The position numbers were made by a program, and so were the translations under genes. From assembly GCA_016841365.1 (NCBI GenBank), contig JAENZI010000001.1, positions 379,639-443,638 of the forward strand: a stretch of 64,000 nt of DNA, given 5' to 3'. Below, piece after piece: positions 3,738-21,393 of the stretch. This DNA is from Anaerolineaceae bacterium (GTDB lineage Bacteria; Chloroflexota; Anaerolineae; Anaerolineales; Anaerolineaceae). The notes beneath the pieces are model-generated. The model was not told the DNA's origin and ran no database searches. It saw only the letters and a list, made by a program, of their open reading frames with translations. Numbering within the stretch: the stretch's first letter is position 1; each line of letters opens with the position of its first letter.

Positions 3738-5690
3738 TTAATAAACGGTGAAGATGCTTTCTGCTGTCCCGGGCTGGTAACCATCTTTGTCAGCGGTCAC
3801 GGATAGGGCGTATTGGCCGTTGCCGGTCTTGCGGACGATGACTTTGTAATCAAAACTGACGGTGCCATCTGCAGCAGTGGTGCCTTTGAGGGTTTGGGGC
3901 TTAAACTGCGTGGATTCAATCGTCACGGTCACTGCGGCACCTTCGACAGGGTTGACGCCATCGGTCACGAATATCTCGATCGGGACGGTATCGCGGTCTG
4001 TGAATTGTGCGGCATGTTCAGGGCTGGTGATTGTCACCACAAGCTCGTCTTCCGTTGGGGGTGGGGGTGTCAGTTCTTCAAGATAGTCAAGCGCAAGCAC
4101 AGCCTGCACCAGGCCAAACCCGAAGGCGATATCCCGTTCATCATCGCCTAAATCAAGGGCGGTCATGGTCATTGCTTCACGGACTTGCTCATTTGTCCAG
4201 TCCGGGTTAGCCGACCAAATCAGGGCTGCCACGCCGGCAACATGCGGGGTCGCCATGGAGGTTCCGCCCCAGGCTTCATAGCCGTTACCTGGTTTTTCAA
4301 GCACGCTGGAGACGGTCGCTGGCAAGCCAACTTTTCCGAGCATCGCCAGGCCGTTTTCCATCGTTGTGCTCACAGAAATGATCTCAGATGTATTGCCTTC
4401 CCCCAGGGTGGCATACAGGTCTTCATTTTCGACATTATTATAAATGACCGCTGCCACGCCGCCGCTGTTCTGAACATTCATTGTTTTCTGATAGAAATCA
4501 TTGGTTCCGCGACTGCATAATACGACATTACCCGCCCAATCGCCTGTGGCGGTGCATAAACCCCCGTCCACCAGCGTGCCGTTGGCTGTGCCATAAGCAG
4601 CATATTCTGTATGATTGACTTTATATTCAGTCCCGTCAACCGTAACGGAATTTGTTTCAATGTAGGGTAGTGTGGAGAGCACTCCTACGCCCGGTGCTGC
4701 CAGCTCGACGGGTTCATTCTGGGCTGAGAAATCTGCAATTGAAAGGTTTGCGTCGAGCGCGGCTACTGCGATGACGGACTCATAGGATGCCGGGTAGTGA
4801 AGGACGCCGGGTTCTTCTACCTGATGGTTCCCGGCAGCGGCCACATGCAGGATTCCGGCGGCATACAGCTCGTCAAAGGCTTGCTGTTCTTTGGTATTGG
4901 AACCGCTACCGCTCAGGCTCATGCTGATCACATTTGCGCCGGCGGATTGGCATTCGTAAATCGCGGCTGTCAGGTCTGACGCATGGGCTTTGCTGACCCA
5001 AGCGCCAGCGTCATCGAAGATCTTCACGATATGCAGGTCGACCATGCCAGGGCTGACGCCAACCACCCCGTAATCATTGTTGAGGGCTGAGATGGTGCCG
5101 GCGACGTGCGTGCCGTGTCCGTAACCATCCCGGGTCCAGTCATCATCAACCTGGGATATACCGGTCACACCATCAACCTTATCTAACAGGTCCTCGTGAT
5201 CGGCATAATAACCGGTGTCGATGATGCAGACCTTCCTGCCCTCACCGCTGGGGGTGCCAGGTTCAACAACAGTATTACCGTCCGGGTCCCAAACCTCACG
5301 GGCTTGCACGGCATCAATCCCCCAAGGGATGGTCTGCCCATTAAAGTCAAGAGCGTCCTCGAATTGGGAGTTAAAATGTACACGGACGGGTTCAACGGGA
5401 TAGCGTTCGGGGTCATTTTCAACGGCGGTCACGAAGGGGTTACGCAAGATGCCGTTGAGCGCTGCTGCCGGCATGCTGACGACATAAGCCTCCAACTCGG
5501 GGAAGTCATAGTGCACGCTGGCGTTCTCACGTGTCAGCGTTTGGAAGACTTCTGCCTTGCGGCCGCTTTGGTAGGTGACCCAAACCCGCACGGTATCCTG
5601 TGCATCGGCTTTGACGGAGATGGCTGTAGTGAAAAGGATCGTCAATAATAAAAACACGGATAAGACTAAATACTTTTTGGAAACATTCAT
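3738..5690 (-). CDS. Secreted S8 subtilisin-like serine protease with propeptide, PA insert and C-terminal Ig-like domain
   Basis: Signal peptide; catalytic motifs IIDTG, GHGTHVAG and GTSMATPHVAG; PA-domain segment VVLCSRG...AAVIYNN. Confidence 0.92.
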   Translation of the reverse strand: MNVSKKYLVLSVFLLLTILFTTAISVKADAQDTVRVWVTYQSGRKAEVFQTLTRENASVHYDFPELEAYVVSMPAAALNGILRNPFVTAVENDPERYPVEPVRVHFNSQFEDALDFNGQTIPWGIDAVQAREVWDPDGNTVVEPGTPSGEGRKVCIIDTGYYADHEDLLDKVDGVTGISQVDDDWTRDGYGHGTHVAGTISALNNDYGVVGVSPGMVDLHIVKIFDDAGAWVSKAHASDLTAAIYECQSAGANVISMSLSGSGSNTKEQQAFDELYAAGILHVAAAGNHQVEEPGVLHYPASYESVIAVAALDANLSIADFSAQNEPVELAAPGVGVLSTLPYIETNSVTVDGTEYKVNHTEYAAYGTANGTLVDGGLCTATGDWAGNVVLCSRGTNDFYQKTMNVQNSGGVAAVIYNNVENEDLYATLGEGNTSEIISVSTTMENGLAMLGKVGLPATVSSVLEKPGNGYEAWGGTSMATPHVAGVAALIWSANPDWTNEQVREAMTMTALDLGDDERDIAFGFGLVQAVLALDYLEELTPPPPTEDELVVTITSPEHAAQFTDRDTVPIEIFVTDGVNPVEGAAVTVTIESTQFKPQTLKGTTAADGTVSFDYKVIVRKTGNGQYALSVTADKDGYQPGTAESIFTVY

Positions 5691-6643: not shown

Positions 6644-7336
6644 TCAGTCTTCTTCGGAGTCGAACTCGTCTTCTTTCTTGCCTTTTTCGATGACTTCAGG
6701 TTCGACATCTTCGTCGAGAAGCTCTGCGAATTCGGCTTCTTCTTCCTCTTCTTCTTCCTCTTCCTCAATCGTCACGTAGGTTACGCCGGCGATCAATTCA
6801 TCGGGGTCGGTGAGGACTTCGTATGTATCCGGCAGGTCAAGGTCTCGCACGTAGATCGCGCTTTCCATGTCCACCAATACTGTCGCATCCACCTCAATGC
6901 GCTCGGGCATGTCTTGCGGGAGACATTCGATTTCAAGTTCTGAAATACCTGTGACCACAACGGCAGCCATGTTGATCTCGGCGGGTGCCTGGCCGATCAG
7001 TTCGATCGGGACTGCGGTCTGGAATTTCTCGGTGAGGGAAACGGCCATGAAGTCCACATGGCGCAAGGTGCCATAGATCACGTCTTTTTGAGCTTCACGC
7101 AACACAACGGGATATTCTTCGCCTTCTACATCCAGCGAGACGAGGCTTGACCCCGTCAGTCGGTTGATCGTCTTTGAGGCTTCGTGGAGATCCATCTGGA
7201 TCATGATCGGTTCGATTTGTTCTTTGCCGATCCGCCCGTAAATGATCCCGGGCAAGAGACCTTCCCGTCGTAAACTGCTAACCTGTTTTCCTTTGATCGT
7301 TCTTTTTTGTACTTCTAATGCAATTTTTTCAGACAT
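6644..7336 (-). CDS. rplY: 50S ribosomal protein L25/Ctc (TL5-type) with acidic tail
   Basis: LRREGLLPGIIYG and HVDFMAV motifs, C-terminal beta domain, poly-Glu tail. Confidence 0.93.
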   Translation of the reverse strand: MSEKIALEVQKRTIKGKQVSSLRREGLLPGIIYGRIGKEQIEPIMIQMDLHEASKTINRLTGSSLVSLDVEGEEYPVVLREAQKDVIYGTLRHVDFMAVSLTEKFQTAVPIELIGQAPAEINMAAVVVTGISELEIECLPQDMPERIEVDATVLVDMESAIYVRDLDLPDTYEVLTDPDELIAGVTYVTIEEEEEEEEEEAEFAELLDEDVEPEVIEKGKKEDEFDSEED

Positions 7337-7489
7337 TATTCCATCCTTCGAGCGCCTCTCACCCTTGATGCGTGGGTTACCTTCGCTCTCTGATTAAGTT
7401 GGGTTGATTGCTGGACAATCCAGCGACATTGAATTCTATCCGGATCGCAGTAAAAGGTCAAGGTAAATGGCACTTTAAGACTATTCACC

Positions 7490-7517
7490 TTGACAAACCT
7501 CGATATCGTGATATAAA
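7490..7517 (+). promoter_or_regulatory. Sigma70 promoter for the gamma-lyase operon
   Basis: TTGACA (7490-7495) and extended -10 TGaTATAAA (7509-7517). Confidence 0.8.
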
Positions 7518-7521
7518 TGAA

Positions 7522-7545
7522 GCAAACGTTTGCGTAAACGATTGC
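7522..7545. promoter_or_regulatory. Tandem LacI/PurR-type operators
   Basis: Perfect palindrome GCAAACGTTTGC (7522-7533) followed directly by GTAAACGATTGC (7534-7545). The same motif pair occurs upstream of the LacI gene at 21013-21037. Confidence 0.85.
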
Positions 7546-7817
7546 CTGAATTAATTAGCCTTATTGAAGTTTCCGCAACAATCAACAGAAACGCGAATTT
7601 TTATTGGTAGCAGCAACCAATAACAGCAACAATCTGATCAGCATTGATAGATTGGATGATTGTTTTAACCATTGATGTCACTTAGGCTTGTTGATGGATA
7701 GATGGGATGGTTTTCTTACCGATCTAAAAGGAGGTTTCGACACGGTTCTTGAACGACTGATCGATTTTGTTTTCTACACAGGCAACTTTTTTAAATAACT
7801 CTGGAGGAGCTTAATTA

Positions 7818-9017
7818 ATGACACACGATTTATCAAATAAGGGGTTTGCAACACGGCAGATTCACGCAGGCAGTATTGACATCCCAGGCATCAAGCCGCT
7901 GGCGACACCAATATTTCAGACGAGCACCTTCGTCTTTGATAGCGCTGCGCAAGGTGCTGCGCGGTTTGCTGGTGAAGAAGATGGCTTTATCTACACCCGT
8001 ATGGGTAATCCTAATCATGAGCAGGTAGGGCAGAAGATTGCCTCCCTCGAAAATGCCGAAGCCGGTCTGGTGCTCAGTTCGGGGATGGGTGCGATCAATA
8101 CTTGTTTGTTGACGATTCTGCGCAGTGGCGATCACCTGCTGGCTGATGAGACGCTGTATGGCGCAACATTTTCCTTCCTGGCAAAAGGCATGTCCCACTA
8201 TGGGATCGATGTGACCTTTACCGATTTTTCGGATATTGAAAACGTCACAGATAATATCAAACCCAATACCAAAGCGGTTTATTTTGAAACGCCTGCGAAC
8301 CCAACCTTGAAGGTTTTGGATCTTGAGCTGGTTGCGGATACCGTTCATGCCGTCAATCAAGACATCAAAGTGATTGTTGACAATACCTTCTGCACGCCTT
8401 ACATTCAACGCCCGATAGAACTGGGCGTGGATGTTGTGATTCATTCAGGGACCAAGTATTTGAACGGTCACGGCGATGTGATCAGCGGGATGATTTGCGG
8501 CACGAAAGAATTTGTCGGCCAGTGTAAGGATTTTGGCCTCAAATTGGTGACAGGCGCTGTTGTCAGCCCCTTTGACGCTTTCTTGATCAGTCGGGGTATG
8601 AAAACCCTGGATATCCGCATGGAAAAGCATTGCAGCAACGCCATGAAAGTGGCTGAGTTCCTCGAAGGGCATGAGAAGGTCGCTAAAGTGTATTATCCCG
8701 GTTTGCCAAGCTTCTCAGGTTATGAAATTGCTAAGAAACAGATGCGGCTCCCCGGCGGGATCATCACCTTTGAGTTGGACGCCACCAAGGAACAATCCGA
8801 ATCATTTATTAACACCCTTGAGTTGTGTTCTTTAGCAGTCAGCCTGGGTGATACCGAGACGCTCATCCAGCATCCGGCATCAATGACCCACGCCTCTTAT
8901 TCAAAAGAGGAATTGAAGGAAGCCAAAATATCTGAGAGCATGATTCGCCTTTCAGTCGGGTTAGAAACGGCTGAAGATATCATTGAGGATTTACGAGTCG
9001 GTTTGGATCGATTGTAG
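7818..9017 (+). CDS. PLP-dependent Cys/Met metabolism lyase (methionine gamma-lyase-like)
   Basis: PIFQTSTF, YTRMGNP, SSGMGAI, HSGTKYLNGHGD (PLP Lys) and IRLSVGLE motifs. Has LYGAT in place of the LYGCT of canonical MGL. Confidence 0.9.
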   Translation: MTHDLSNKGFATRQIHAGSIDIPGIKPLATPIFQTSTFVFDSAAQGAARFAGEEDGFIYTRMGNPNHEQVGQKIASLENAEAGLVLSSGMGAINTCLLTILRSGDHLLADETLYGATFSFLAKGMSHYGIDVTFTDFSDIENVTDNIKPNTKAVYFETPANPTLKVLDLELVADTVHAVNQDIKVIVDNTFCTPYIQRPIELGVDVVIHSGTKYLNGHGDVISGMICGTKEFVGQCKDFGLKLVTGAVVSPFDAFLISRGMKTLDIRMEKHCSNAMKVAEFLEGHEKVAKVYYPGLPSFSGYEIAKKQMRLPGGIITFELDATKEQSESFINTLELCSLAVSLGDTETLIQHPASMTHASYSKEELKEAKISESMIRLSVGLETAEDIIEDLRVGLDRL

Positions 9018-9055: not shown

Positions 9056-9092
9056 CAGTGCCAATTCTTATGAAAGGATTGGCACTGTTTTT
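9056..9092 (+). terminator. Terminator-like hairpin between the lyase and the ProC-like gene
   Basis: cagtgccaat...attggcactg stem followed by TTTTT. Confidence 0.6.
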
Positions 9093-9114: not shown

Positions 9115-10221
9115 ATGTCAGAGCGGACACCAAGAATTGCAATTATTGGTTTGGGTTTTTTGATGCGTTACATGAAACCCTGTTTTGAGGCATTAACCAG
9201 AAATGCTTACGCTACCAATGTTGTCGCGACCACTGCTACTGAAGCATCTATCTCAGCCAAGCAGGCGGAAATGGGGATTCGCATCTACCATCATCATGAA
9301 TTGGGGGTCCTCAAGGCTTTCAAACCTGACATTATCATGTTTGCGCCGCCGCCTTCTGCAGTAGCGAATCTGACGCGCGATGTGCTTGTGCCTTACTATC
9401 GCGAAATAAAAGAAGGAAATAAGCCTCTGCCAGATCTGTATGCTTTTGCACCAGATCCGCGTGTGGAATATTATCAGACCCAATTGGGCAATGACGGCTT
9501 TTATGTCAATATATTGCCTAATATGACCTTTGATCCATCTGGTGACGCGCCGGCATGCTATTCGGTGGTCACTTATCCGGATTACCAGGCACACAATGTG
9601 GAAAAAATTGCGCGTGTTGAAGCATTTCTGTCACCGTTGGGGTCTGTCCTAAACATGCCATCAGAGTGGATCACGCCCTTCATCGGTGGGTATGTGGTCT
9701 GTCATTTGGTCCTGAATTTTGCTTTTGCCTGTTATGACGCGTTGAACACATCGGGATACCTGGTATCAATGGAACAGATTGCAGATGTGTTTCAGGATTC
9801 TTTATCGAATGATAATATTTCTTTCGATAGCAATAATGAGGGCAGTGCTGAAACCGTTTGCCGGTTCGTCCTGAAAAGTTTTCAAAACGGATTAATTAGT
9901 TATTATGCTCAATCCGGCATATCAGAAGGATTTGCACGGAACGCGATCACGGTCCAATTGAACGCGTTCATTGAACGTTTACGGTCTGAAACGCGGGAGA
10001 ATTTAATCAGGGACAGTCAGAATCATGCTACAAAGGGTGGTCTGCTTGAAAACGCCGAAAGATATTTCCATGACAATATTCACGCAAACCTTCTTGACCG
10101 TTTATCTTCCCCGGAAGGCGATCTTGAGACGTTATCCGAAAAAATTTCGCAGTTTGCCTATGATGCTGCAGCCTTTATTTCTGCATTTAGCGATGGATAT
10201 TCTGGGATCACCGGGAATTAA
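9115..10221 (+). CDS. Divergent pyrroline-5-carboxylate reductase (ProC)-like NAD(P)-dependent oxidoreductase
   Basis: Rossmann IAIIGLGFL; DIIMFAPPP (ProC VLAVKP); VNILPNM (ProC VRxMPN); LSPLGSV; ATKGG (ProC TSPGG). Longer than typical ProC. Confidence 0.65.
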   Translation: MSERTPRIAIIGLGFLMRYMKPCFEALTRNAYATNVVATTATEASISAKQAEMGIRIYHHHELGVLKAFKPDIIMFAPPPSAVANLTRDVLVPYYREIKEGNKPLPDLYAFAPDPRVEYYQTQLGNDGFYVNILPNMTFDPSGDAPACYSVVTYPDYQAHNVEKIARVEAFLSPLGSVLNMPSEWITPFIGGYVVCHLVLNFAFACYDALNTSGYLVSMEQIADVFQDSLSNDNISFDSNNEGSAETVCRFVLKSFQNGLISYYAQSGISEGFARNAITVQLNAFIERLRSETRENLIRDSQNHATKGGLLENAERYFHDNIHANLLDRLSSPEGDLETLSEKISQFAYDAAAFISAFSDGYSGITGN

Positions 10222-10255: not shown

Positions 10256-10301
10256 GCACCCCTGGAAAATTTCGGATAAGAGGAATGAAATCCAGGGGTG
10301 C
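10256..10301. terminator. Inverted repeat at the junction of the two convergent operons
   Basis: gcacccctgga (10256-10266) ... tccaggggtgc (10291-10301). Confidence 0.55.
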
Positions 10302-10360: not shown

Positions 10361-10999
10361 TTATTCATTTTCTAAAACAAATTCAGCGAAAGAAGTCAGC
10401 ATCAGTTTGGCGACGGCTGCGCCGGGGTCAACTAATTTTCGGGAAGCTTCGCCGCGTGCAGCAGCACGGCCGTGTTTGGCGATCATGGTTGTTGTTTTTT
10501 CGAGGTCTTTATCGGCGGCGGCGATGATCATTGGTGCACTTTCTTTCAGGCTTCTGCCGGTTTCAGCACCTTCTTTTAGGATTTCTAAAGACCCGATCAT
10601 CCCATCCAGGAATGTTTTCTCGCCAAGCTCAGCGTGGCCAAGGTTCTTCACCCCATCGAAATAAGCTTCAAAGAATTCAGCAATACCTTGCTCATCAAGC
10701 TTGTCTGTGCCTCGTAAAGCCTTCCCTGCGGACATAAACCCTTGTGACATTAATGTTCCCATAGACGAGGGAACGGCGCGAGACATCGCCTTGCCGGAAA
10801 AGTAGGATAGCTTGCCGATGTCCGTTTCATCAAGATCCTCGACAGCGTGAACGGCAGCGGCAAAACCTTCACTCATTGTAAGGCCTAAATCAGCATCTCC
10901 AACGATGCTGTCAAGACCAATTAGGTAATCTTTATGCTGCAGCATGACTTCTGCCCAAGCGTTGAGCAACTGTTTGAATTCGAGATGTGTGATGATCAT
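10361..10999 (-). CDS. dhaL: Dihydroxyacetone kinase family subunit L (copy 1)
   Basis: LDSIVGDADLG, SSMGTL, EKTFLDG and GRA motifs. Confidence 0.9.
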   Translation of the reverse strand: MIITHLEFKQLLNAWAEVMLQHKDYLIGLDSIVGDADLGLTMSEGFAAAVHAVEDLDETDIGKLSYFSGKAMSRAVPSSMGTLMSQGFMSAGKALRGTDKLDEQGIAEFFEAYFDGVKNLGHAELGEKTFLDGMIGSLEILKEGAETGRSLKESAPMIIAAADKDLEKTTTMIAKHGRAAARGEASRKLVDPGAAVAKLMLTSFAEFVLENE

Positions 11000-11022
11000 G
11001 TCTAAAACCCTCCTGTTTATTT

Positions 11023-12030
11023 CTACATTTGTGTGAAGAATGGTGTGTCTGCCGGGTCGGCAATCATTTCTCTTAATTCGTCATCAAGTTTGAGTAGCGA
11101 AATGGAGGCACCAGCCATCTCCATTGATGAGGCGAATTCGCCAACATATGCTTTGAAGACATCAATCTTTTTCTCTTCAAGAATGTGAGCAACGCAGCGA
11201 TACATCACATATAGTTCTTCGAGTGGGGTGGCACCTAATCCATTGATCAGAACAGCGACTTCATCACCAGATTGGAATGGCAGATCGTTGAGGATCTGTT
11301 CCATCATTTCATTGACAATTTCATCTGCGGGTTGCAGCTTTCCGGTTCGCATGCCGGGTTCGCCGTGGATGCCCATCCCAATTTCCATTTCATCTTCTTT
11401 GATCTGGAAACTTGGCCGGCCGACTTTGGGGACAATACACGGGGTGAGGGCAACACCCAGGGTGCGCACATTGGCATTTGCTTTTTCAGCCACGCGCTTC
11501 ACCTCATCCAGGTCCATCATCCTTTTTGCTGCTGCACCGGCACATTTGTAAACGAAGAACATCCCGGCAACACCTCTACGGGTGCTTTTTTCGCCTGGCT
11601 GGGGTGCTGGGGAGGCAACGTCATCGGCCAAGATCACGGTCTCGACCCGGATGTCTTCCTCAAAATCAGCCATTTCCGCAGCCATGTCGAAATTGAAGAT
11701 GTCGCCGTTGTAATTGCCATAGATATAAAGGACGCCAGCACCTGAATCGATTGCTTTGGTGACCTCAAACATTTGCTCTGCACTGGGTGATTGGAACACA
11801 TCACCAACAGAGCAGCCATCCAGCAAGCCGTCGCCTACATAGCCGAGGAACAATGGTAAATGGCCTGATCCTCCGCCAGTTGCCAGGCCGACTTTATTTT
11901 CGATTTTATTTTTGGTTACATAACAGTGGTAATCGTCATTGACAAATTCCACCATGTCCTTATGGGCAAGGTAGATACCTTCAAGCATTTCATTCACCAT
12001 CGCTTCGGGTTTATTTATGATTTTTTTCAT
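11023..12030 (-). CDS. dhaK: Dihydroxyacetone kinase family subunit K (copy 1)
   Basis: GGGSGHLP, NYNGD, DDVAS, RRGVAG and GMGIHGEPG (catalytic His) motifs. Confidence 0.92.
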   Translation of the reverse strand: MKKIINKPEAMVNEMLEGIYLAHKDMVEFVNDDYHCYVTKNKIENKVGLATGGGSGHLPLFLGYVGDGLLDGCSVGDVFQSPSAEQMFEVTKAIDSGAGVLYIYGNYNGDIFNFDMAAEMADFEEDIRVETVILADDVASPAPQPGEKSTRRGVAGMFFVYKCAGAAAKRMMDLDEVKRVAEKANANVRTLGVALTPCIVPKVGRPSFQIKEDEMEIGMGIHGEPGMRTGKLQPADEIVNEMMEQILNDLPFQSGDEVAVLINGLGATPLEELYVMYRCVAHILEEKKIDVFKAYVGEFASSMEMAGASISLLKLDDELREMIADPADTPFFTQM

Positions 12031-12193
12031 ATCTCCTCTTTTCTCAAAGATCCTGAGTTGATTGGGTTTTAAAAGCCATCTATTTTTTAACTATTATTAC
12101 CAGTAGCTAGATCGGGTTAATGAATATTTTATTTCTTACTGCCGTTAAATAAATTCTTTTGTTGTTGTTTATTAATAAATAAGTGCTTTAGCA

Positions 12194-12227
12194 AGAAAGG
12201 GCCCTAACCTAAGCCAAGGCCCTTTCT
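12194..12227 (-). terminator. Hairpin downstream of the solute-binding protein gene
   Basis: agaaagggcc...ggccctttct stem. The U-tract is weak, so it may be an mRNA-stabilising element. Confidence 0.45.
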
Positions 12228-12266
12228 CCATTCTTACATCATAAAATTTTTTACTGCTGAACGGCT

Positions 12267-13478
12267 TTAATTTTCCAGGGCGTTCAGGTTGACAAATTGA
12301 CCGTCAATGACCTGAATTGGCTGAAGTTGTCGAACTGCATCGCCAAGCTCGTTCATGGAATAGGTGCCTGCCAGGCATTCATAATCTTCCATGCCGGCGA
12401 GGGTGTCGCGGAGTGTTTGGCTATCGGTTGTACCAGCCTGTTCAATGGCTGTGGCAAGCTGCATCACGACATCGTAGGTCTGCATGACGAAGGCATCACC
12501 CTTCTTGCCGGTGCGCTCTTCATAGGCTGCCATAACTTCCTGGAAGCGTTCGGTTGCAATGTCGGGTGAGAAGGCATTCATCAGGAAAGCGCCATTGGCC
12601 AGTTCACCAGCTACATCGATCAGTTCCTGTTTGAGGGTTGAGCTGGAGAGGATCATTGGTACATCGAAGTCAAGGCCATCTGCCTGGATCAGGATGTTGG
12701 CTGAATCAGCATAGTATCCGATGGGGAAGAAGGCTTCAGGATTGGCTTCTTTGGCTTTTGAAATCATAGGTGTGAAGTCTGTGGTCTGGTTAGGAATGTA
12801 ATTTTCTGAGACCAAAACTTCGCCGCCCAATTCCTCAAATTTCTCAGTGAAGATTTTTGAGATGTTGTTGCCCCAGTCATCGTTCACATTCAGCAGAGCG
12901 ACGGTGCGGATGCCCATTTCATTGTAAACATATTCGGCATAGCCGGTGGTTTCAATTGCCTGGGTGGGGGTGTTGCGGAACAAGAAATCACCCATGGCTG
13001 AATAGTCAGCGTGTGATGCTGTGGGTGAATAGTTGACCATCTTGGCTTCCTGATAGAGGGGGGCGGCAGCCATGGTGCAGGTTGAGGAGAAGCCGCCGAT
13101 TGCCGCTGTGAATTTTCCGTCGCCAATGATCTTGTTCGCGATGATGACGGTTTCGCTGGCGTCGTTCTTGTCGTCGAAGAATTCAACGATCAGCTCACGA
13201 CCGCCCAATAAACCGCCCATTTCGCCATTGATTTTTTCGAGGGCGAGTTCAACAGCAACTTTTTCAGTATCGCCATATTGCTTTGCGTCACCGGTCAGGG
13301 GACCGTACCAGGCAAAGTAAATGGGTTCCATCGATGCTTCTTCTGTTTCTTCTTCCACAGGTTCCTGTTCTTCGACTACTTCAGGTTCTGTGGGTTCTTC
13401 GGCTTGTTGACAACCAGCCAGAAGTGCAAATATGGAAACGGCGATTAACAATACGGGTATTAATTTGCGAATCTTCAT
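12267..13478 (-). CDS. LIV-type (branched-chain amino acid family) ABC transporter substrate-binding lipoprotein
   Basis: Lipobox LLAGC, acidic linker, GPLTGDAKQYG, DDKND, GGFSST and SPTAS motifs of the LivJ/K fold. Confidence 0.88.
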   Translation of the reverse strand: MKIRKLIPVLLIAVSIFALLAGCQQAEEPTEPEVVEEQEPVEEETEEASMEPIYFAWYGPLTGDAKQYGDTEKVAVELALEKINGEMGGLLGGRELIVEFFDDKNDASETVIIANKIIGDGKFTAAIGGFSSTCTMAAAPLYQEAKMVNYSPTASHADYSAMGDFLFRNTPTQAIETTGYAEYVYNEMGIRTVALLNVNDDWGNNISKIFTEKFEELGGEVLVSENYIPNQTTDFTPMISKAKEANPEAFFPIGYYADSANILIQADGLDFDVPMILSSSTLKQELIDVAGELANGAFLMNAFSPDIATERFQEVMAAYEERTGKKGDAFVMQTYDVVMQLATAIEQAGTTDSQTLRDTLAGMEDYECLAGTYSMNELGDAVRQLQPIQVIDGQFVNLNALEN

Positions 13479-13636
13479 TTTCTCTAAACTCCTTAAAGTT
13501 TGTTATGGTTATTGACTCGGTAAAAATTGTCGGGCATTTGAATTATCCTTTCGATACTCTACTCCTTTCAGCAAATTTGGTTTTTATCTCCTGTATTTCT
13601 TTTAGTCAACCTCAGAATCGTGATGAGGAGACCTGG

Positions 13637-14263
13637 TTAGACAAGTGATTTAGCGATGATGGCGCACAGCATTGCGCCTGCGTCCGGGTATTCTGCAGCG
13701 CGTTTGCCCAGCCATTTTGCACGACCGATTCTGGCTTGCATGCCACGGGTTGCCTCTGCTGCTTCTTCAGCTGCAACAGCACCAGCCTTGAAGCTTTGGT
13801 AGAGGTCATTTGATTCTGCATAGGTCTCTTCAACGGCGTTGGCCATTGGGACCAGCGCATCCAGAATCGTTTTATCACCCAATTCTGCCTTCCCACGAGA
13901 AACAATCCCTTCAGTGAATGTTTTAGGCAGTGTGATAAGCTCTTGCTCTTCGATTGATGTTTTGGATTTGAGTAACTTTGCGATTGATAGGATTCCGCTG
14001 GAGATCAGCGTTCCCATTGTGGATGGGGCGGCACGGTTGCACGCCATTGAAGCTTTGAGCATCATCGCGCCCAGGTCGTCGCCATCATATTCCTGGCAGC
14101 TTGTATTAATTGCAGCAAATGCGGCTTCCATGCTTATGCCAAGATCGCCATCACCCGATTTACTATCCAAATCGCTGAGTGTGTCTTTGTTTTGGATGAC
14201 CGTGTTTGAAATCTCTGTAATTAAGGTTTTTACATCATCAATCGAATTCATCATAACTCTCAT
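13637..14263 (-). CDS. dhaL: Dihydroxyacetone kinase family subunit L (copy 2)
   Basis: LDSKSGDGDLG, STMGTL, DKTILDAL, GRA and PDAGA motifs. Confidence 0.9.
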   Translation of the reverse strand: MRVMMNSIDDVKTLITEISNTVIQNKDTLSDLDSKSGDGDLGISMEAAFAAINTSCQEYDGDDLGAMMLKASMACNRAAPSTMGTLISSGILSIAKLLKSKTSIEEQELITLPKTFTEGIVSRGKAELGDKTILDALVPMANAVEETYAESNDLYQSFKAGAVAAEEAAEATRGMQARIGRAKWLGKRAAEYPDAGAMLCAIIAKSLV

Positions 14264-14282
14264 TATTAACTTGATTGCTTGG

Positions 14283-15281
14283 TTAGAACTTCACAAAAGG
14301 CGTTTCTGCGGGGGTATCCAGCAGTGCCTTTAATTCCTCATCCAAAACCAATAAGCTGATCGAAGCACCCTGCATTTCCATCGATGTGGCGAATTCACCC
14401 ACATAGGTCTTTGAGATTTTGATATCGCGCTTATCCAGCTCTTGTTTAGCGTCATTGAAGAGGATGTAAAGTTCTTCACGGGAGGTCGCTCCCAGGCCAT
14501 TGACGAGGATTGCTATTTCAGCCCCTGGTTTGATGTCCAGGTCGCTGATCAGCCGTTCAACAATCATATTAGCGATTTCTGCGGAGGTCTTCAGGGTGGA
14601 GCGTTCTACGCCAGGTTCGCCATGGATGCCCATGCCCAATTCCATATCGTAATCGCTGATTTCGAAGATGGGTTTCTTTGCTCCGGGCAACTGGCATGAA
14701 GATAGTGCGATGCCCATGGTGACCGTGTTTTCACCAACTTTCTTAGTGACGTCAACGACCTCATTGAGGGAGGCACCTGTCCGTGCCTTTGCGCCTGCAA
14801 CCTTGTAGGCGAAGAAAAGACCTGCAACGCCTCGCCGGGTTTCCCATTCGTCTCTGGGTGCTGAGGCTACGTCATCCGATCCTTTTACGATCGCGGAAGG
14901 GATATCATCCATGGCTAAAATTTCACCAGCCATCTCGAAGTTCATTGTGTCACCGGTGTAGTTGCCGAACAGGAAGAGCACACCTTTACCGCCATGGGTT
15001 GCCTGGGCAGCGTTGACGATCGTTTCCGAACTTGGTGATGTAAACACATTGCCTGCTGCAACGCCATCACAAAATCCTTCGCCGACAAAGCCCAAAAAGG
15101 TGGGGAGGTGGCCGTAACCTCCGCCTGTGATGATGGCAACTTTATCTTTAACCGGGGCGGCAGCACGCACCACAGCGCGAATATCGTCACCGGCAAATTT
15201 GAGCATTTCTGGATGTGCAGCAACAATGCCTTTCAGGCTGTCATCGACGAATTGTGCAGGATTATTCATAATCTTTTTCAT
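14283..15281 (-). CDS. dhaK: Dihydroxyacetone kinase family subunit K (copy 2)
   Basis: GGGYGHLP, NYTGD, DDVAS, RRGVAG and GMGIHGEPG motifs. Confidence 0.92.
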   Translation of the reverse strand: MKKIMNNPAQFVDDSLKGIVAAHPEMLKFAGDDIRAVVRAAAPVKDKVAIITGGGYGHLPTFLGFVGEGFCDGVAAGNVFTSPSSETIVNAAQATHGGKGVLFLFGNYTGDTMNFEMAGEILAMDDIPSAIVKGSDDVASAPRDEWETRRGVAGLFFAYKVAGAKARTGASLNEVVDVTKKVGENTVTMGIALSSCQLPGAKKPIFEISDYDMELGMGIHGEPGVERSTLKTSAEIANMIVERLISDLDIKPGAEIAILVNGLGATSREELYILFNDAKQELDKRDIKISKTYVGEFATSMEMQGASISLLVLDEELKALLDTPAETPFVKF

Positions 15282-15294
15282 AGGTTCACTCCTT

Positions 15295-15807
15295 CTATTC
15301 TGGTTCTTGCACTTTAACTTTATCGAACCTGAGTTGGCAGACCGAATGTCCTTGGGCTATTGTCTTGCCCAGCGTGAAATTGATGGCAGGGAAGCAATCG
15401 CCAATAGCCCGGTCGCCTTCCATGGTGATGTCACAAAGTTCTGCGATCTCATCTTCAGGGATGCCCATCTTCAGCCATTGTGCCACATAAGGGCAATAGT
15501 GGAAGTCAATGTAGAGTTTGTCCTCTGTGGAGGCAACCGTTTCCATCTCGTAAATATCCCAGTTGTGATCTTTGCCGAAATATTTGGCAAGCTCCTCAAT
15601 GTCTGTGGGATCTTCCAGCATATTGTAGAAATCTTTTCCCATAGGGATGCCATACCGGTAAATTGCTCGACGGGCAAAACCTTCATCGAGGCCAAGTTCT
15701 TCCGCTTCTTCAATCATTAAGGCAATCGTAGCAGCCCGGCGTTCGCTGATGTTCCTCAGTCCGTTAACGCATTCGTTTTCGATGGTGGGTTTGTTGGTGA
15801 TAGTCAT
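15295..15807 (-). CDS. L-2-amino-thiazoline-4-carboxylic acid (ATC) hydrolase family protein (paralog 2)
   Basis: FHYCP...LCDITMEGDR...FTLGKTIAQGHSVCQLRF three-Cys pattern. The family name does not establish the activity. Confidence 0.7.
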   Translation of the reverse strand: MTITNKPTIENECVNGLRNISERRAATIALMIEEAEELGLDEGFARRAIYRYGIPMGKDFYNMLEDPTDIEELAKYFGKDHNWDIYEMETVASTEDKLYIDFHYCPYVAQWLKMGIPEDEIAELCDITMEGDRAIGDCFPAINFTLGKTIAQGHSVCQLRFDKVKVQEPE

Positions 15808-15818
15808 GTTTTTTATTC

Positions 15819-16319
15819 CTATTTCTTATTAAAGCGAATTTGACAGACTGGGTGACCCTGAGCGATGGTTTCACCCAATGTAAATTTCACTGTGGGGAAT
15901 TGGCTGGCAATTCCTCGATCACCATCCATGGCGATATCGCAGAGTTGTTCGATGTCTTCATCTGACACGCCTAATTTTTGCCAGGCTTTGACTAGGGGGC
16001 AGTAGTGAAAATCTAAGTAATATTTCTCTTCATCTTCTGCAAGAACTTCCATCTCAAAGACTTTTCGGCCAGTGCCAACAGCGAAGACCTGTTCGAACTC
16101 TTCAAGGCTGGTCTCATCTTGCATGAGTGCTTTGAAGCGTTCTCCGTGGATGCAACCTGTCTGTTTGATTGCTTCGCGTGCAAAATCATCCCAATCCAAA
16201 CCACGTTTTCTTGCTTCTTCCATCAGGAAATACATCCACGTGGCGCGGTGTTCAATTGCGTTTCTGACTTCGACAACGATTTCCTCGTCAATGGTTGCTT
16301 CATTTGTGATTTTCGTCAT
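15819..16319 (-). CDS. ATC hydrolase family protein (paralog 1)
   Basis: FHYCP...LCDIAMDGDR...FTLGETIAQGHPVCQIRF. Start moved to the ATG at 16319 (SD gaaagga upstream). Confidence 0.7.
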   Translation of the reverse strand: MTKITNEATIDEEIVVEVRNAIEHRATWMYFLMEEARKRGLDWDDFAREAIKQTGCIHGERFKALMQDETSLEEFEQVFAVGTGRKVFEMEVLAEDEEKYYLDFHYCPLVKAWQKLGVSDEDIEQLCDIAMDGDRGIASQFPTVKFTLGETIAQGHPVCQIRFNKK

Positions 16320-16359
16320 ATCTTCTCTTCCTTTCGAATGGGTTATTTTATTGAGTTGA

Positions 16360-17073
16360 TTAATCAAGGTTGCCTAAATACGCGGCCACCACTTTTGGAT
16401 CTTTTGCAAGGTCTGACCCCTTGCCTGACAAGCGGATGATACCGGTTTCCAAAACATATCCTCTATCCGAGATATTGAGCGCCATACGGGCATTTTGCTC
16501 TACGAGCAGGATCGTTGTGCCAATCTGATTGATCCGTTTGATCAAATCAAATATTTCCCTGATCAGCAATGGCGCTAATCCAAGTGAGGGCTCATCCAAC
16601 ATCAATAACTTGGATTTTGACATCAGTGCCCTGGCGACAGCCAACATTTGCTGTTCACCACCCGAGAGGGTGCCTGCGATCTGACTCAATCGTTCTTTGA
16701 GCACCGGGAACAATTTGAACGATTCTTCCATGTTCTCTTTCATGACTTCTTTTGAGACGGTGTACGCGCCCATTTGCAGATTTTCAAGGACGGTCATCCG
16801 TGGGAAGATCAACCGGCCTTCAGGTGCGAGTGTGATCCCGTGTTTAACGATCGTGGAGGAGTCTTCATGAGATATGTCCTCACCCTGGTAGAGGATTTCG
16901 CCCATTTTTGGCCGCAAGAGACCCATGATCGTGTTCATGGTTGTGCTTTTGCCAGCGCCATTTGCACCAATCAGGGTGACAATCTCGCCTTCGTTCACTT
17001 CGAAATTGATCCCACGCAAGGCGTTGATCGAGCCATAGGAAACGTGCAAGTTTTTGACTTCAAGCAATGCCAT
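16360..17073 (-). CDS. livF: LIV-type ABC transporter ATPase
   Basis: GANGAGKST, LSGGEQQMLA and LDEPSLGLAP motifs. Confidence 0.92.
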   Translation of the reverse strand: MALLEVKNLHVSYGSINALRGINFEVNEGEIVTLIGANGAGKSTTMNTIMGLLRPKMGEILYQGEDISHEDSSTIVKHGITLAPEGRLIFPRMTVLENLQMGAYTVSKEVMKENMEESFKLFPVLKERLSQIAGTLSGGEQQMLAVARALMSKSKLLMLDEPSLGLAPLLIREIFDLIKRINQIGTTILLVEQNARMALNISDRGYVLETGIIRLSGKGSDLAKDPKVVAAYLGNLD

Positions 17074-17077
17074 GATG

Positions 17078-17845
17078 TTAGTGCTCCTTTCCCAGATATG
17101 CTTCGATCACATCAGGGTTCGATTGGATCTCAGAGGGTTTTCCCTGCGCAATCAATTTACCGTGATCCAGCACATAAATCCGGTCGCAGATATTCATAAT
17201 GACGCGCATATCATGTTCGATGATCAGGATGGTGTAACCCAAATCTCGCAATTCACGGATGAACGCGATCAACTGAGAGGTTTCCATCTCGTTCATGCCA
17301 GCGCCGGGCTCATCTAACAACAATATTTCAGGCTCCGCAGCGAGTGCACGTGCGATCTCCAATTTTCTCTGTGAACCGTAGGGGAGTGATGTTGCATAGT
17401 TATACCGAAAATCTGCCAATCCGGTTAATTCGAGCACAGAGAGGGCTTTTTCGTGAGCTTTTTTCTCGGTTTCTTTGTGGTTTTTTAGGCGGAATAATGA
17501 GTCAACAATATTGGCTTTGGTTCTTGAGTGAACTCCAACCATCACGTTTTCAATCACGGTCATCCTGTCAAATAAGCGGATGTTCTGGAATGTGCGCGTA
17601 ATCCCTAATTCGGTGACCTCATAGGGCTTTTTGCCGGTAATATCTTTGCCCCGGTAAAATACCTGGCCTTCTGTTGGGTCATACATGCCGGTAATATCAT
17701 TAAAGAAGGTCGTTTTTCCGGCACCGTTAGGACCAATGATGCCGACAATTTCACCCTTATTCAGTTCCATACTCACTTGATCAACTGCAACAAGGCCGCC
17801 GAAGTGCTGGCTGACGTTATTAGCCCAAAGAATTTTTTCAGCCAT
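17078..17845 (-). CDS. livG: LIV-type ABC transporter ATPase
   Basis: GPNGAGKTT, RTFQNIRLF and LLDEPGAG motifs. Confidence 0.92.
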   Translation of the reverse strand: MAEKILWANNVSQHFGGLVAVDQVSMELNKGEIVGIIGPNGAGKTTFFNDITGMYDPTEGQVFYRGKDITGKKPYEVTELGITRTFQNIRLFDRMTVIENVMVGVHSRTKANIVDSLFRLKNHKETEKKAHEKALSVLELTGLADFRYNYATSLPYGSQRKLEIARALAAEPEILLLDEPGAGMNEMETSQLIAFIRELRDLGYTILIIEHDMRVIMNICDRIYVLDHGKLIAQGKPSEIQSNPDVIEAYLGKEH

Positions 17846-18945
17846 CAGGACTCACTCCTTTCCTGTGATTTGCGGAACATTGCTTGCTGCTTGATGTGCT
17901 TGAGATTGAAACTGCCCAACAGTCCATTAGGTTGGAATACCATCATAATAACAAGTACGAACCCGTAGATGATCAAACGGTAATCTATCAAAAACCGGAG
18001 TAATTCTGGCAAGGCTAGCAGTGTTAGGGCACCAAAAATGCTCCCAGCGATGCTGGCCATCCCGCCAAAAATGGTGACGGAGAGGATCAGGATTGACTGG
18101 GCAAACGAAAAGGCATTTGGATCGATGAAGCTCATATAATGCGCATAAAATGCACCAGCCAAACCAGCAAATGCGGCCGAGATGCTGAATACCATCAGCT
18201 TATACCCAAAAACATTAATGCCCATTGCTTCTGCTGCCACTTCATCATCCCGGATAGCGCTGATCGCCCTGCCGACCCGTGAGTTCATGATCGCGGCCAC
18301 AGCCAGAACAACAAGTACCAGGATTACCAGGATCACGTAATATTTCTGGGCTGGTGTTTTCATTATCCAACCAAATAAGCTCACCTTGGGGATGCCGGAA
18401 ATCCCTTGTGGACCTCGTGTTAAGGACATCCAGTTGAGCTCTACCATTCTCGCAATCTCACCAAACCCGAGCGTGACAATTGCTAAGAAGCGTCCTTTGA
18501 TCCGGAGGGAGGGCAGCCCTAAAAGCAAACCAAATAAACCAGCCATGGCTGCCCCTGCGAGGAAGGTGATTGGGAAATTTGCTCCTAAGCGGGTTGAAAG
18601 AATGGCTGCTGTGTAAGCCCCAATCCCTAAAAATGCAGCGTGGCTTAAGGAGGTGATGCCCATAAAGCCTGTGATCAGATTAAGGGATACGGACAGAGTT
18701 GCGTACAGCATCACATTTACACCAATTGAGAGAAAGTATTGCTGATTGAACAATATCGGAAAAAGAATGGCAATTGCAAGAAAGGCCAAAGAAATTGCTG
18801 TTTGGTGTTTAGCCCAAAACTCCAGAAGCGAGGTGAAAAACCTTTTGACCGGTTTTTCTTTGCTCTTGATAGGGGCTTTGATGACTGCTTCGTCTAAATT
18901 TTGCTGTGAAGCTTTATCGATTGGATTTTGATTGTTCTCGACCAT
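17845..18945 (-). CDS. livM: LIV-type ABC transporter permease
   Basis: SLSHAAFLGIGAY, GRFLAIVTLGFGE and GINVFGYK motifs; multiple TM segments. Confidence 0.9.
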   Translation of the reverse strand: MVENNQNPIDKASQQNLDEAVIKAPIKSKEKPVKRFFTSLLEFWAKHQTAISLAFLAIAILFPILFNQQYFLSIGVNVMLYATLSVSLNLITGFMGITSLSHAAFLGIGAYTAAILSTRLGANFPITFLAGAAMAGLFGLLLGLPSLRIKGRFLAIVTLGFGEIARMVELNWMSLTRGPQGISGIPKVSLFGWIMKTPAQKYYVILVILVLVVLAVAAIMNSRVGRAISAIRDDEVAAEAMGINVFGYKLMVFSISAAFAGLAGAFYAHYMSFIDPNAFSFAQSILILSVTIFGGMASIAGSIFGALTLLALPELLRFLIDYRLIIYGFVLVIMMVFQPNGLLGSFNLKHIKQQAMFRKSQERSES

Positions 18946-18950
18946 GGGTT

Positions 18951-19844
18951 TTATACCTTTGTCTCGATTTTGACGCCTAATAGGCCAGAAGGTTTTATTA
19001 ACAGAACAACAAACATGATGATAAATGCAATTGCATCTCGGAAACCCGAACCAACATAAGCAGCAAACATAGTTTCGACAATGCCGATGATAAAACCGCC
19101 GAACATCGCGCCGGGTAAACTGCCCATTCCGCCGAGTACTGCGGACGATATGGATTTGAGGCCAACGGAAGCGCCCATCAGGGTATCAATTTTTTGGTAA
19201 TAAGTCCCCATCATTGCGCCAGAGATAGCTGCAACAGCTGACCCGATGAGAAATGTGATGGTAATGACGGTATTGACATTGATGCCCATCAGCTTGGCGG
19301 CGGTTGCATTTTGTGAAATTGCTCGCATGGCGTTCCCGATTTTGGTGCGATATACGAGGTAAGAGAGACCAAGCATCAACAGAATGGCTACAACAAATAT
19401 GATGATCTGAAAAATTTGGATAACAGTGTCACCGACGTAAACCTTCCCTAACTGAAAAACATCCGGGAAAGGTTTTGATTCGGTCCCAAAGATCAATAAG
19501 ATCGAGTTGTTGATGATCGTTTGGACGCCTACGGTTGTCAGAAGGGCTGTAATGGGGGCACCATTTCTCTTGCGGATGGGTTCCAGTGAAGCCTTATCCA
19601 TTAAAGCGCCTAATAGGCCGGTAATGACGATGCTGATGCCCAGCCCGATAAAGAACCCCAGCGGGGTGACTCGCCCTAACAGCCAGGTCATGGAGAAGAC
19701 AGTCAGGTAGGCACCGAGCATGTAGAAAGAACTATGGGCAAAGTTGGTCAGTTCAAGCACACCATAAACCAGGTTGAATCCGATGGTGACGAGTGCGTAT
19801 GTGCTGCCGATGGTTAATCCGTTGACAAGTTGTTGAAAAAACAT
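18951..19844 (-). CDS. livH: LIV-type ABC transporter permease
   Basis: QQLVNGLTIGSTYAL, NFAH and LGGMGSLPGA motifs. Confidence 0.9.
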   Translation of the reverse strand: MFFQQLVNGLTIGSTYALVTIGFNLVYGVLELTNFAHSSFYMLGAYLTVFSMTWLLGRVTPLGFFIGLGISIVITGLLGALMDKASLEPIRKRNGAPITALLTTVGVQTIINNSILLIFGTESKPFPDVFQLGKVYVGDTVIQIFQIIIFVVAILLMLGLSYLVYRTKIGNAMRAISQNATAAKLMGINVNTVITITFLIGSAVAAISGAMMGTYYQKIDTLMGASVGLKSISSAVLGGMGSLPGAMFGGFIIGIVETMFAAYVGSGFRDAIAFIIMFVVLLIKPSGLLGVKIETKV

Positions 19845-19967: not shown

Positions 19968-20987
19968 TCAGTCTAATAAAATTGACCTCGTAGAGTCCCT
20001 GACAATGATCTTTGCAGGGAGGATGATTTCTTCATTTTCCCACGACGAAACATCCAGTTGAACTTTTTCTAAGAGCCGTTCAACAGCGGTTTCAGCAATC
20101 TTGCCGACAGGCTGGGCGATAGTTGTGAGGCTGGGCACTATGGCTGAGGCTAACTCAATATTGTCAAAGCCGACGAATGAGAAATCTTCGGGGATGCGGT
20201 AGCCGTTTCGGCGGGCGGTTGCCATCGCACCGATCGCCATCATATCGTTCAGGGCAAACACGGCTGTGGGGAGGGGTTCTGTTAAGAGTAGTTTTTCCAT
20301 GACAAAGGAGCCGCTCTTCATCGTGAAATCCCCTTGAACGATGTATTCGGGTTTTGGTTCAATCCCGATTTCTCGCAGTGCTTTTCGAAAGCCGCATTCT
20401 CGCATATGGCTTGGGGCTAATTCGGTTGGCCCGGTGATCAAAGCAATCCGCGTATGCCCCAGGTCAATCAGGTGTTTTGCACCATCGTAACCCGCTTGCT
20501 CATTATCCAGCAAGATCATGTCGGCCAGGCTGAGGGGGATATTGCGGTCTACCACAACAACGGGTGTACCGGTGTTTGCCAATCGCTGCAGATCTTCTTT
20601 TGATTCACCGGCAGAAATGAAGATCACACCATCAACCTGTTTGGCGATCAGGGTGTCGATGTAACTGCACTGTTTTTCGAGGTCATTGTCACTATTACAC
20701 AGGATGACACTGTAGCCATTTTTGAAACCCAGATCTTCGATCCGGCGGGCCATATCGGCAAAGAAGGGGTTGGACCCATCGGGCAGCATCAGTCCAATCG
20801 TTTTGGTTTCGCCGCTGCGCAAACTTCTCGCCAGTGTATTCGGATGGTATCCAAGATTAGACATTGCTTTTTCAACGGCATCGCGGGTGGGCTCGGCAAC
20901 AAACCGTGTGTTATTGATCACATGAGAAACCGTTGTTGTCGAAACACCTGCTTGATTGGCAACATCCTTGATTGTGACTTGTCTCAT
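19968..20987 (-). CDS. LacI-family transcriptional regulator (PurR/RbsR-like HTH)
   Basis: TIKDVANQAGVSTTTVSHVINNTRFV, ARSLR hinge, C-terminal sugar-binding domain (GFDN). Confidence 0.93.
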   Translation of the reverse strand: MRQVTIKDVANQAGVSTTTVSHVINNTRFVAEPTRDAVEKAMSNLGYHPNTLARSLRSGETKTIGLMLPDGSNPFFADMARRIEDLGFKNGYSVILCNSDNDLEKQCSYIDTLIAKQVDGVIFISAGESKEDLQRLANTGTPVVVVDRNIPLSLADMILLDNEQAGYDGAKHLIDLGHTRIALITGPTELAPSHMRECGFRKALREIGIEPKPEYIVQGDFTMKSGSFVMEKLLLTEPLPTAVFALNDMMAIGAMATARRNGYRIPEDFSFVGFDNIELASAIVPSLTTIAQPVGKIAETAVERLLEKVQLDVSSWENEEIILPAKIIVRDSTRSILLD

Positions 20988-21012
20988 TGAGTGAATACCT
21001 TGAATTTCCTTG

Positions 21013-21069
21013 GGAAAACGATTGCGTAAACGATTGCTTCAAATATATCAGGTTAACGGCGTTTGTCAA
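21013..21069 (-). promoter_or_regulatory. Sigma70 promoter plus tandem LacI operators for the lacI-liv-dha operon
   Basis: Minus strand reads TTGACAAAC-gccgttaacc-TGATATATTT-GAAGCAATCGTTTAC-GCAATCGTTTTC, with the same spacing as the promoter at 7490. Confidence 0.85.
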
Positions 21070-21393
21070 GGGTTTAACAGCAAGTTAATTTGGCGTTGCT
21101 TTTGATTTGATGAAAATTGGATTTGGAACGATGAATTCAATAAAAATTTTTGCTATCAACGATATTTGCCTGATTTTTAAAGAAGATGACTTTACAGTGT
21201 CAACCTTAAAAATATTGCAGTTTAGCTGATTATTGAACAAATAATTAGACTTTGTTGACATAGATGACCAGTTGAATTTAATCGGTGCCAGCACTTCGCT
21301 TCATTGACCATGCAGAATCTCAGCAACGCGTTTTCGAGTAAAATCAGAGTAGTAACCCAATGGATTAGTTTTCTTTAAGAGGGAAGTGTGATC

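Follow-up and report, generated by a model that had tools for sequence, protein, structure and literature searches.

The two promoter–operator cassettes that face each other in the window (the whole stretch of 64,000 nucleotides analysed here) are probably kept, each on its own, under simple repression by the LacI-family protein encoded downstream of one of them, an arrangement that would include autoregulation and dispense with a DNA loop. On this reading, which is drawn from the sequence and its relatives, each cassette would combine a strong σ-70-type promoter (TTGACA, 16 nt, TGnTAnnnT) with a 24-bp double operator, and a dimeric PurR/RbsR-like repressor (19968-20987) would bind both double operators. 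Seated at about -2 to +22 from the start, the classic position for such interference, it would prevent either formation of the open complex or escape from the promoter. Promoter B would drive lacI, resulting in negative autoregulation, and probably also the genes for a Liv-type ABC transporter, ATC-hydrolase and DhaKL proteins, and promoter A would drive a methionine-gamma-lyase-like gene by way of a 272-nt leader. The repressor is expected to be released by a small molecule, probably the substrate that is transported or a phosphorylated product, and the two cassettes would work independently of each other. The simple model leaves the role of the second operator unexplained, since the contact zones of dimers placed 12 bp apart overlap, and the ways in which the paired sites might be occupied are therefore weighed below.

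Anatomy of the two cassettes

The elements of the two cassettes, here called A and B, are the following:

7490-7495, + strand: -35 hexamer TTGACA of promoter A, read in the sequence
7509-7517, + strand: extended -10 element TGaTATAAA of promoter A (TG 7509-7510; TATAAA 7512-7517), 16 nt past the -35
7522-7533, + strand: operator A-proximal, GCAAACGTTTGC, a perfect palindrome that covers the inferred start at ~7524
7534-7545, + strand: operator A-distal, GTAAACGATTGC, its centre 12 bp from the A-proximal centre
21064-21069, - strand: -35 hexamer TTGACA of promoter B, read in the sequence
21042-21050, - strand: extended -10 element TGaTATATT of promoter B (TG 21050-21049; TATATT 21047-21042), 16 nt past the -35
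21026-21037, - strand: operator B-proximal, GCAATCGTTTAC, which covers the inferred start at ~21035
21014-21025, - strand: operator B-distal, GCAATCGTTTTC, abutting B-proximal

The original prediction had described two cassettes of equal spacing, each with two abutting 12-bp operators over the start site, and this anatomy proved exact to the base, with the operator pair present in both A and B and covering the inferred starts. Both cassettes have TGAA (4 nt) between the -10 box and the first operator, both have the CpG centres of the paired 12-mers 12 bp apart, and an ungapped alignment of one with the other gives 45 identical nucleotides out of 60. They are oriented towards each other with 13,579 bp between them. 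All four 12-mers fit the LacI/GalR-type palindrome, that is, a central CpG with AA-N-CG-N-TT arms, and the B-proximal operator is the exact reverse complement of the A-distal one. The start sites (~7524 for A and ~21035 for B) were inferred from the -10 boxes, which end at 7517 and 21042, respectively, and relative to them the double operators span about -2 to +22. The lacI gene, with its ATG at 20987, lies 27 nt downstream of operator B. In a consensus scan promoter B was the top promoter-like site in 17 kb (11/12 with TG); promoter A scores 10/12 with TG and was unlisted in that scan because the last base of its -10 box is an A. A further promoter-like site, TTGACC-17-TAGAAT, at 7433-7461 on the - strand, is directed at the L25/Ctc gene (6644-7336) and stands back to back with promoter A, the two -35 boxes being 29 bp apart.

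Two other ways of reading the operator region were considered and set aside. The palindrome formed at the junction of the 12-mers (TTGC/GCAA) was rejected as a real binding centre, because its arms are everted (TT-N-CG-N-AA) and unfit for a LacI-type hinge and helix-turn-helix. The cre consensus has TG...CA ends and W positions, and a CcpA/cre reading was rejected by eye, as the 14-mers around the sites miss both.

Rarity of the motif in the genome

A genome-wide scan for the motif, which had been proposed together with the original prediction, confined its strict form to the two local promoters. GYAAWCGWTTRC occurs three times in the window, where 0.09 occurrences would be expected, and the whole 2.86-Mb genome holds it in just those three places, all at the two promoters; the same scan of the 2.86-Mb genome placed no GYAAWCGWTTRC site at the pur genes. 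When tandem pairs at an offset of 12 were sought, three scoring at least 18/20 were found in the genome, namely A, B, and one within a coding region, and none in five third-order Markov-simulated genomes. The coding-region pair, at C3:202413 inside a 500-codon frame, has no CpG centre and was attributed to chance.

Operator architecture among related repressors

Neither the 36 genomes searched from its genus, nor the 24 from its order, nor the species-genome collection contained an orthologue of the repressor more than 56% identical, and the only two 95% orthologues found are both on metagenome contigs (L100 and L101). Homologues with a TVSH-type helix, 48-60% identical, occur commonly both in genomes of Anaerolineae and on metagenome contigs; these relatives carry GCAAnCGnTTGC sites, and homologues with a TVSR helix carry other palindromes. 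Almost every TVSH-type repressor gene is preceded by the same module, made of TTGACA, a spacer of 16-17 nt, a -10 box that is often extended, 2-5 nt, and two 12-mers. The 12-bp register was examined without presetting it, by seeking, in each of the 28 loci that have a strong site, the highest-scoring partner at distances of 8-45 bp: this partner stood precisely 12 bp away in 27 of them, and never at 11 or 13 bp, nor at 16 bp or beyond. In two loci, L013 and L111, another site follows at 24 bp; in L013 the three 12-bp-phased palindromes upstream of the repressor gene (5157-5192) read GCAACCGCTTGC GCAAGCGGTTGC GCAAGCGGTTGC, and L111 is likewise triple.

The same -35/-10 layout is present in 25 related promoters, whose profile contains a conserved 22-bp block, AAACGaTTGC-GCAAaCGtTTgc. 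Both CpG centres and both sets of AA/TT arms are conserved in this profile, and freedom to vary is confined to the two outermost positions of the proximal operator, near the start site; the sites were picked by consensus match, so that only the relative conservation values count. Five related promoters have CC instead of CG at the centre of the proximal site. The facing arrangement also recurs, since L002 and L006 have a second cassette, facing the first, 9-10.6 kb downstream. In both loci, L006 being Longilinea arvoryzae KOME-1, lacI-pfkB converges on a Bmp/PnrA-type ABC operon whose own promoter faces back and has the same double operator. The double operator and the facing-twin layout recur in relatives and are, therefore, family traits, not peculiarities of the window. 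Abutting tandem palindromes were also seen beside unrelated LacI homologues in the Bacillota loci L022, L021, L023, L029, and L032; Pelosinus has GTAAACGTTTAC twice at 12 bp, and Peptococcaceae has GAAAACGTTTTC repeats at 13 bp.

Conservation in strains and orthologues

In the orthologous contigs L100 and L101, the 105-nt block that starts 28 nt ahead of the promoter B -35 and ends right before the lacI ATG differs at just one position, 3 nt short of the start codon, and the B-proximal operator is 100% identical in both; further upstream of the block, identity is about 60-75%. Strain variants taken from four DNA metagenomes gave a similar profile at promoter B, with 0-1 substitutions in 20994-21094 versus about 24 in 21095-21260, and with no substitutions in the B-distal operator in X1, X2, X5, and X6. 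At the other end of the cluster, the A-distal operator is invariant in four metagenome strain variants. The -35 of promoter A is the same in all strain variants, and its extended -10 carries no substitutions in them. One variant of site A differs at five spacer bases (7498 and 7500-7503) and in a partly replaced leader beyond 7551 but keeps its -35, its -10, and the two operators intact, and a further contig shares only 7508-7545, that is, the -10 and both operators, its spacer being different with TTGACA kept, and its downstream sequence being different as well. Taken as a pattern of substitutions, these comparisons show strong purifying selection on both operators. The 28 nt immediately upstream of the -35 of promoter B (21070-21097) are 100% identical in the 95% orthologues, with divergence beyond, and could be a UP element or a further protein site.

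Occupancy of the overlapping sites

In the survey of Ravcheev et al. (2014, PMC4052901), the distances between LacI-family sites peak at 13, 22, and 32 bp, and overlapping sites about 13 bp apart occur upstream of 110 operons, with functional evidence cited for E. coli GntR at gntKU. The zero-gap tandem operators that the original prediction had considered unusual are thus a recurrent pattern and, in this clade, the rule. The same authors pointed out that side chains make contacts as far as 7 bp from the centre of a site, so that the contact zones of two such dimers overlap, an arrangement that is hard to fit to known structures (PMC4052901).

Two dimers may nevertheless hold both 12-bp-phased sites at once, one at each CpG, possibly with DNA distortion besides, and we give this reading somewhat less than an even chance. 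Joint occupancy would make repression cooperative and switch-like, and it would refine the simple-repression model, with no contradiction. It is favored by the exact 12-bp register in 27 of the 28 loci, by the third site at 24 bp in L013 and L111, by the conservation of both CpG centres and AA/TT arms in the 25-promoter profile, and by the invariance of both sites in strains; it has to face, however, the overlap of the contact zones and the difficulty of fitting dimers so spaced to structures (PMC4052901), as well as the CC centre of the proximal site in five related promoters.

A single dimer bound at a time is a comparable candidate, quite possible though short of probable. The overlapping registers could be alternative landing sites, which would increase occupancy and protect +1 as well as +11 to +22, or there could be one better site that matters, for which the neighbour merely provides a favourable flank (G-Y at positions 7-8, like that of the 16-bp PurR box). 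The steric argument (PMC4052901) speaks for such a mode, and so do the two barely conserved outer bases of the proximal site and the neighbouring GC/GT, which matches the PurR-box flank in ACGCAAACGTTTGCGT-type sites. This mode leaves unexplained, on the other hand, why a whole second palindrome is conserved, CpG centre included, why the offset of 12 is invariable, and why triple arrays exist. On the sequence evidence, the odds for joint and for single occupancy are about equal.

A stronger form of joint occupancy is also conceivable, in which the clade uses an obligate phased array, with two dimers (three at some loci) bound simultaneously and their CpG centres 12 bp apart; we regard it as tentative, and on balance doubtful. 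If true, each hinge pair would kink the DNA, giving a continuous repressor–DNA superstructure; the binding mode would be new among the solved LacI-family complexes, and it would account for the 12-13-bp peak of LacI site spacing.

The candidate repressor

Under the preferred model, simple repression at both promoters, the acting protein would be the product of the first gene downstream of promoter B:

19968-20987, - strand: LacI-family repressor gene, 339 aa, PurR/RbsR/CytR-like (Pfam PF00356, PF00532, PF13377)

The protein matches PurR structures at E 1e-68. The PurR-like helix VSTTTVSHVIN that had been reported for it was indeed found, and it is identical to that of E. coli PurR; across the DNA-binding domain 36 of 56 residues are identical to E. 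coli PurR, and the hinge ARSL is identical. The NCBIfam models give 300 bits for PurR, 279 for RbsR, and 275 for CytR, all far below the equivalog cut-offs (for the PurR equivalog NF007979, 501 bits). The genome has nine LacI paralogues and the PurR helix occurs only in the local one, the other eight having VS(R/F)-type helices, unlike the PurR type. As for the sites, the PurR core palindrome invoked in the original prediction finds a direct counterpart, since the E. coli PurR sites identified by ChIP contain the GCAAACGTTTGC core and variants such as GTAATCGTTTGC and TTAAACGATTGC (PMC3159470), so that the same 12-mer cores are shared.

Because the motif is unique in the genome, the local LacI is the sole paralogue with a PurR helix, and 12-mers are shared with the PurR ChIP sites, we strongly infer that this protein binds both cassettes. 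It is by far the best candidate for this role, given the uniqueness of the motif, the sole PurR helix, the co-occurrence in the clade, and the purifying selection, and it would then repress both operons and itself, as originally predicted.

Another regulator, either a LacI paralogue or a global factor, might instead occupy the sites, with the adjacency of lacI being coincidental. Eight further LacI paralogues are encoded in the genome and could be considered for this role, but all eight helices differ from the PurR type, at least two of these paralogues have different palindromes of their own adjoining their genes (C1:45871; C3:25523 and 26596), and helix and operator co-vary across the clade, which makes this alternative very unlikely. 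Perfect palindromes, GCAACCGGTTGC, stand at C3:25523 and C3:26596, on both flanks of the LacI paralogue C3:25570-26556, which is thus a second regulator in this genome with sites on either side of its gene.

Transcription and the genes probably controlled

The features on the two sides of the cluster that bear on transcription are the following:

7546-7817, + strand: 272-nt transcribed leader before the PLP-lyase gene (RNA contigs)
7818-9017, + strand: gene of a methionine-gamma-lyase-like PLP enzyme, the target of promoter A (Pfam PF01053, E 2e-141)
9056-9087, + strand: strong terminator-like hairpin, 14 pairs and a T run, directly after the lyase gene
10361-19844, - strand: eleven genes downstream of lacI, on the same strand (Pfam and synteny)

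Transcription downstream of promoter A was observed in two unrelated metatranscriptome studies, with RNA contigs at 7547-7876 (X4) and 7549-7699 (X8) that run through the leader into the lyase gene; among the metatranscriptome contigs there was none in 7404-7546. For lacI, the RNA contigs extend to 20967, and none of the metatranscriptome contigs lies in 20968-21400. The RNA contigs begin 22-25 nt past the predicted start and, being low-depth assemblies from related strains, they bracket the 5' ends and do not map them; as such, they are consistent with starts at ~7524 and ~21035.

Rfam was searched with 7300-7900, and nothing in the 272-nt leader matched at E values up to 1. The leader is probably not a conserved riboswitch, because about 100 nt of it (7551-7650) are swapped for unrelated sequence in some strains. 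For the lyase itself, the NCBIfam methionine gamma-lyase subfamily scores 615 bits, below its cut-off of 666. The ProC-like gene that follows (9115-10221) may lie outside the control of promoter A, its co-regulation being uncertain because of the hairpin at 9056-9087. A second long hairpin, GCACCCCTGGA...TCCAGGGGTGC, occupies ~10256-10301, between the two sets of convergent genes.

The eleven genes at 10361-19844 comprise a LivHMGF-type ABC transporter, two ATC-hydrolase-family proteins, DhaK/DhaL, a Peripla_BP_6 binding protein, and a second DhaK/DhaL, and they are probably co-transcribed, at least partly. The synteny of this minus-strand cluster is retained in L100. Within it, the gaps of 123-236 nt contain no operator-like site and could contain unregulated internal promoters. 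The cluster of Liv, ATC-hydrolase, and two DhaK-DhaL pairs was found only here and in one 95% relative; its absence beside all the other repressor homologues examined suggests a recently assembled or transferred island.

The original prediction also envisaged looping between the two ends of the cluster, with repressor at both cassettes bridging the 13.6 kb, and two near-identical cassettes that face each other, in a twin layout that recurs in L002 and L006, would suit such a bridge; the twins are, however, more simply two convergent operons of one regulon with terminator hairpins between them, and a loop is extremely unlikely because the local LacI has no tetramerisation tail, the alignment of the 339-aa protein being restricted to residues 1-329 of Lac repressor and the protein ending 6 residues later, and the nearest solved relatives, PurR, CcpA, and RbsR, being dimers. 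The report on loop assays in PMC8053113 contains nothing on dimeric LacI-family proteins.

Significance and comparison with known systems

The overlapping double-site layout is known and recurrent, and the regulatory design is otherwise ordinary; the interest of the present case lies mainly in its unusual regulon and in the natural series that it offers for overlapping operators. A regulator and a two-promoter regulon are now assigned to an unusual cluster of an uncultured Anaerolineae lineage. This regulon does not look like one for a sugar, and the repressor is a practical handle for finding the substrate of the cluster through a screen of effectors. In addition, a clean natural series for the overlapping-operator question raised in 2014 is provided by at least 27 loci, in which the register is always 12 bp and arrays are occasionally triple.

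Among known systems, E. coli PurR, with its 16-bp PUR box of the ACGCAAACGTTTGCGT type, has the identical STTTVSHVIN helix and ARSL hinge, and is a dimer without a tetramerisation tail, as the local LacI would be by its sequence. The targets differ, however, since those of the local LacI would be an uptake and catabolic cluster and not purine biosynthesis, and the local gene sits in its own operon; unlike the corepressor-dependent PurR, the local protein most likely responds to an inducer, and double operators take the place of the single sites of PurR. The RbsR/CytR branch falls in the same clade by score, and its Anaerolineae relatives L006 and L002 have the same promoter, the same 12-bp-phased double operator, and the same facing twins. 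Whereas a pfkB kinase and a Bmp/PnrA-type ABC system are found in those relatives, the regulator of the window would control a Liv-type ABC transporter, two DhaK/DhaL pairs, ATC-hydrolase-family proteins, and a methionine-gamma-lyase-like enzyme.

The cassettes also resemble the class described by Ravcheev et al. (2014), to which E. coli GntR at gntKU belongs, in having overlapping palindromes at the promoter that are conserved in an orthologous group (PMC4052901). They differ from it in that the register of this clade is 12 bp instead of 13, and invariant; as far as the text of that study shows, Chloroflexota/Anaerolineae are not among its genomes (PMC4052901). Finally, E. coli Lac repressor has the same family and fold and an operator that likewise overlaps the start site, but its operators O1, O2, and O3 are 92 or 401 bp apart, whereas the local sites abut within each cassette and the cassettes themselves are 13.6 kb apart.
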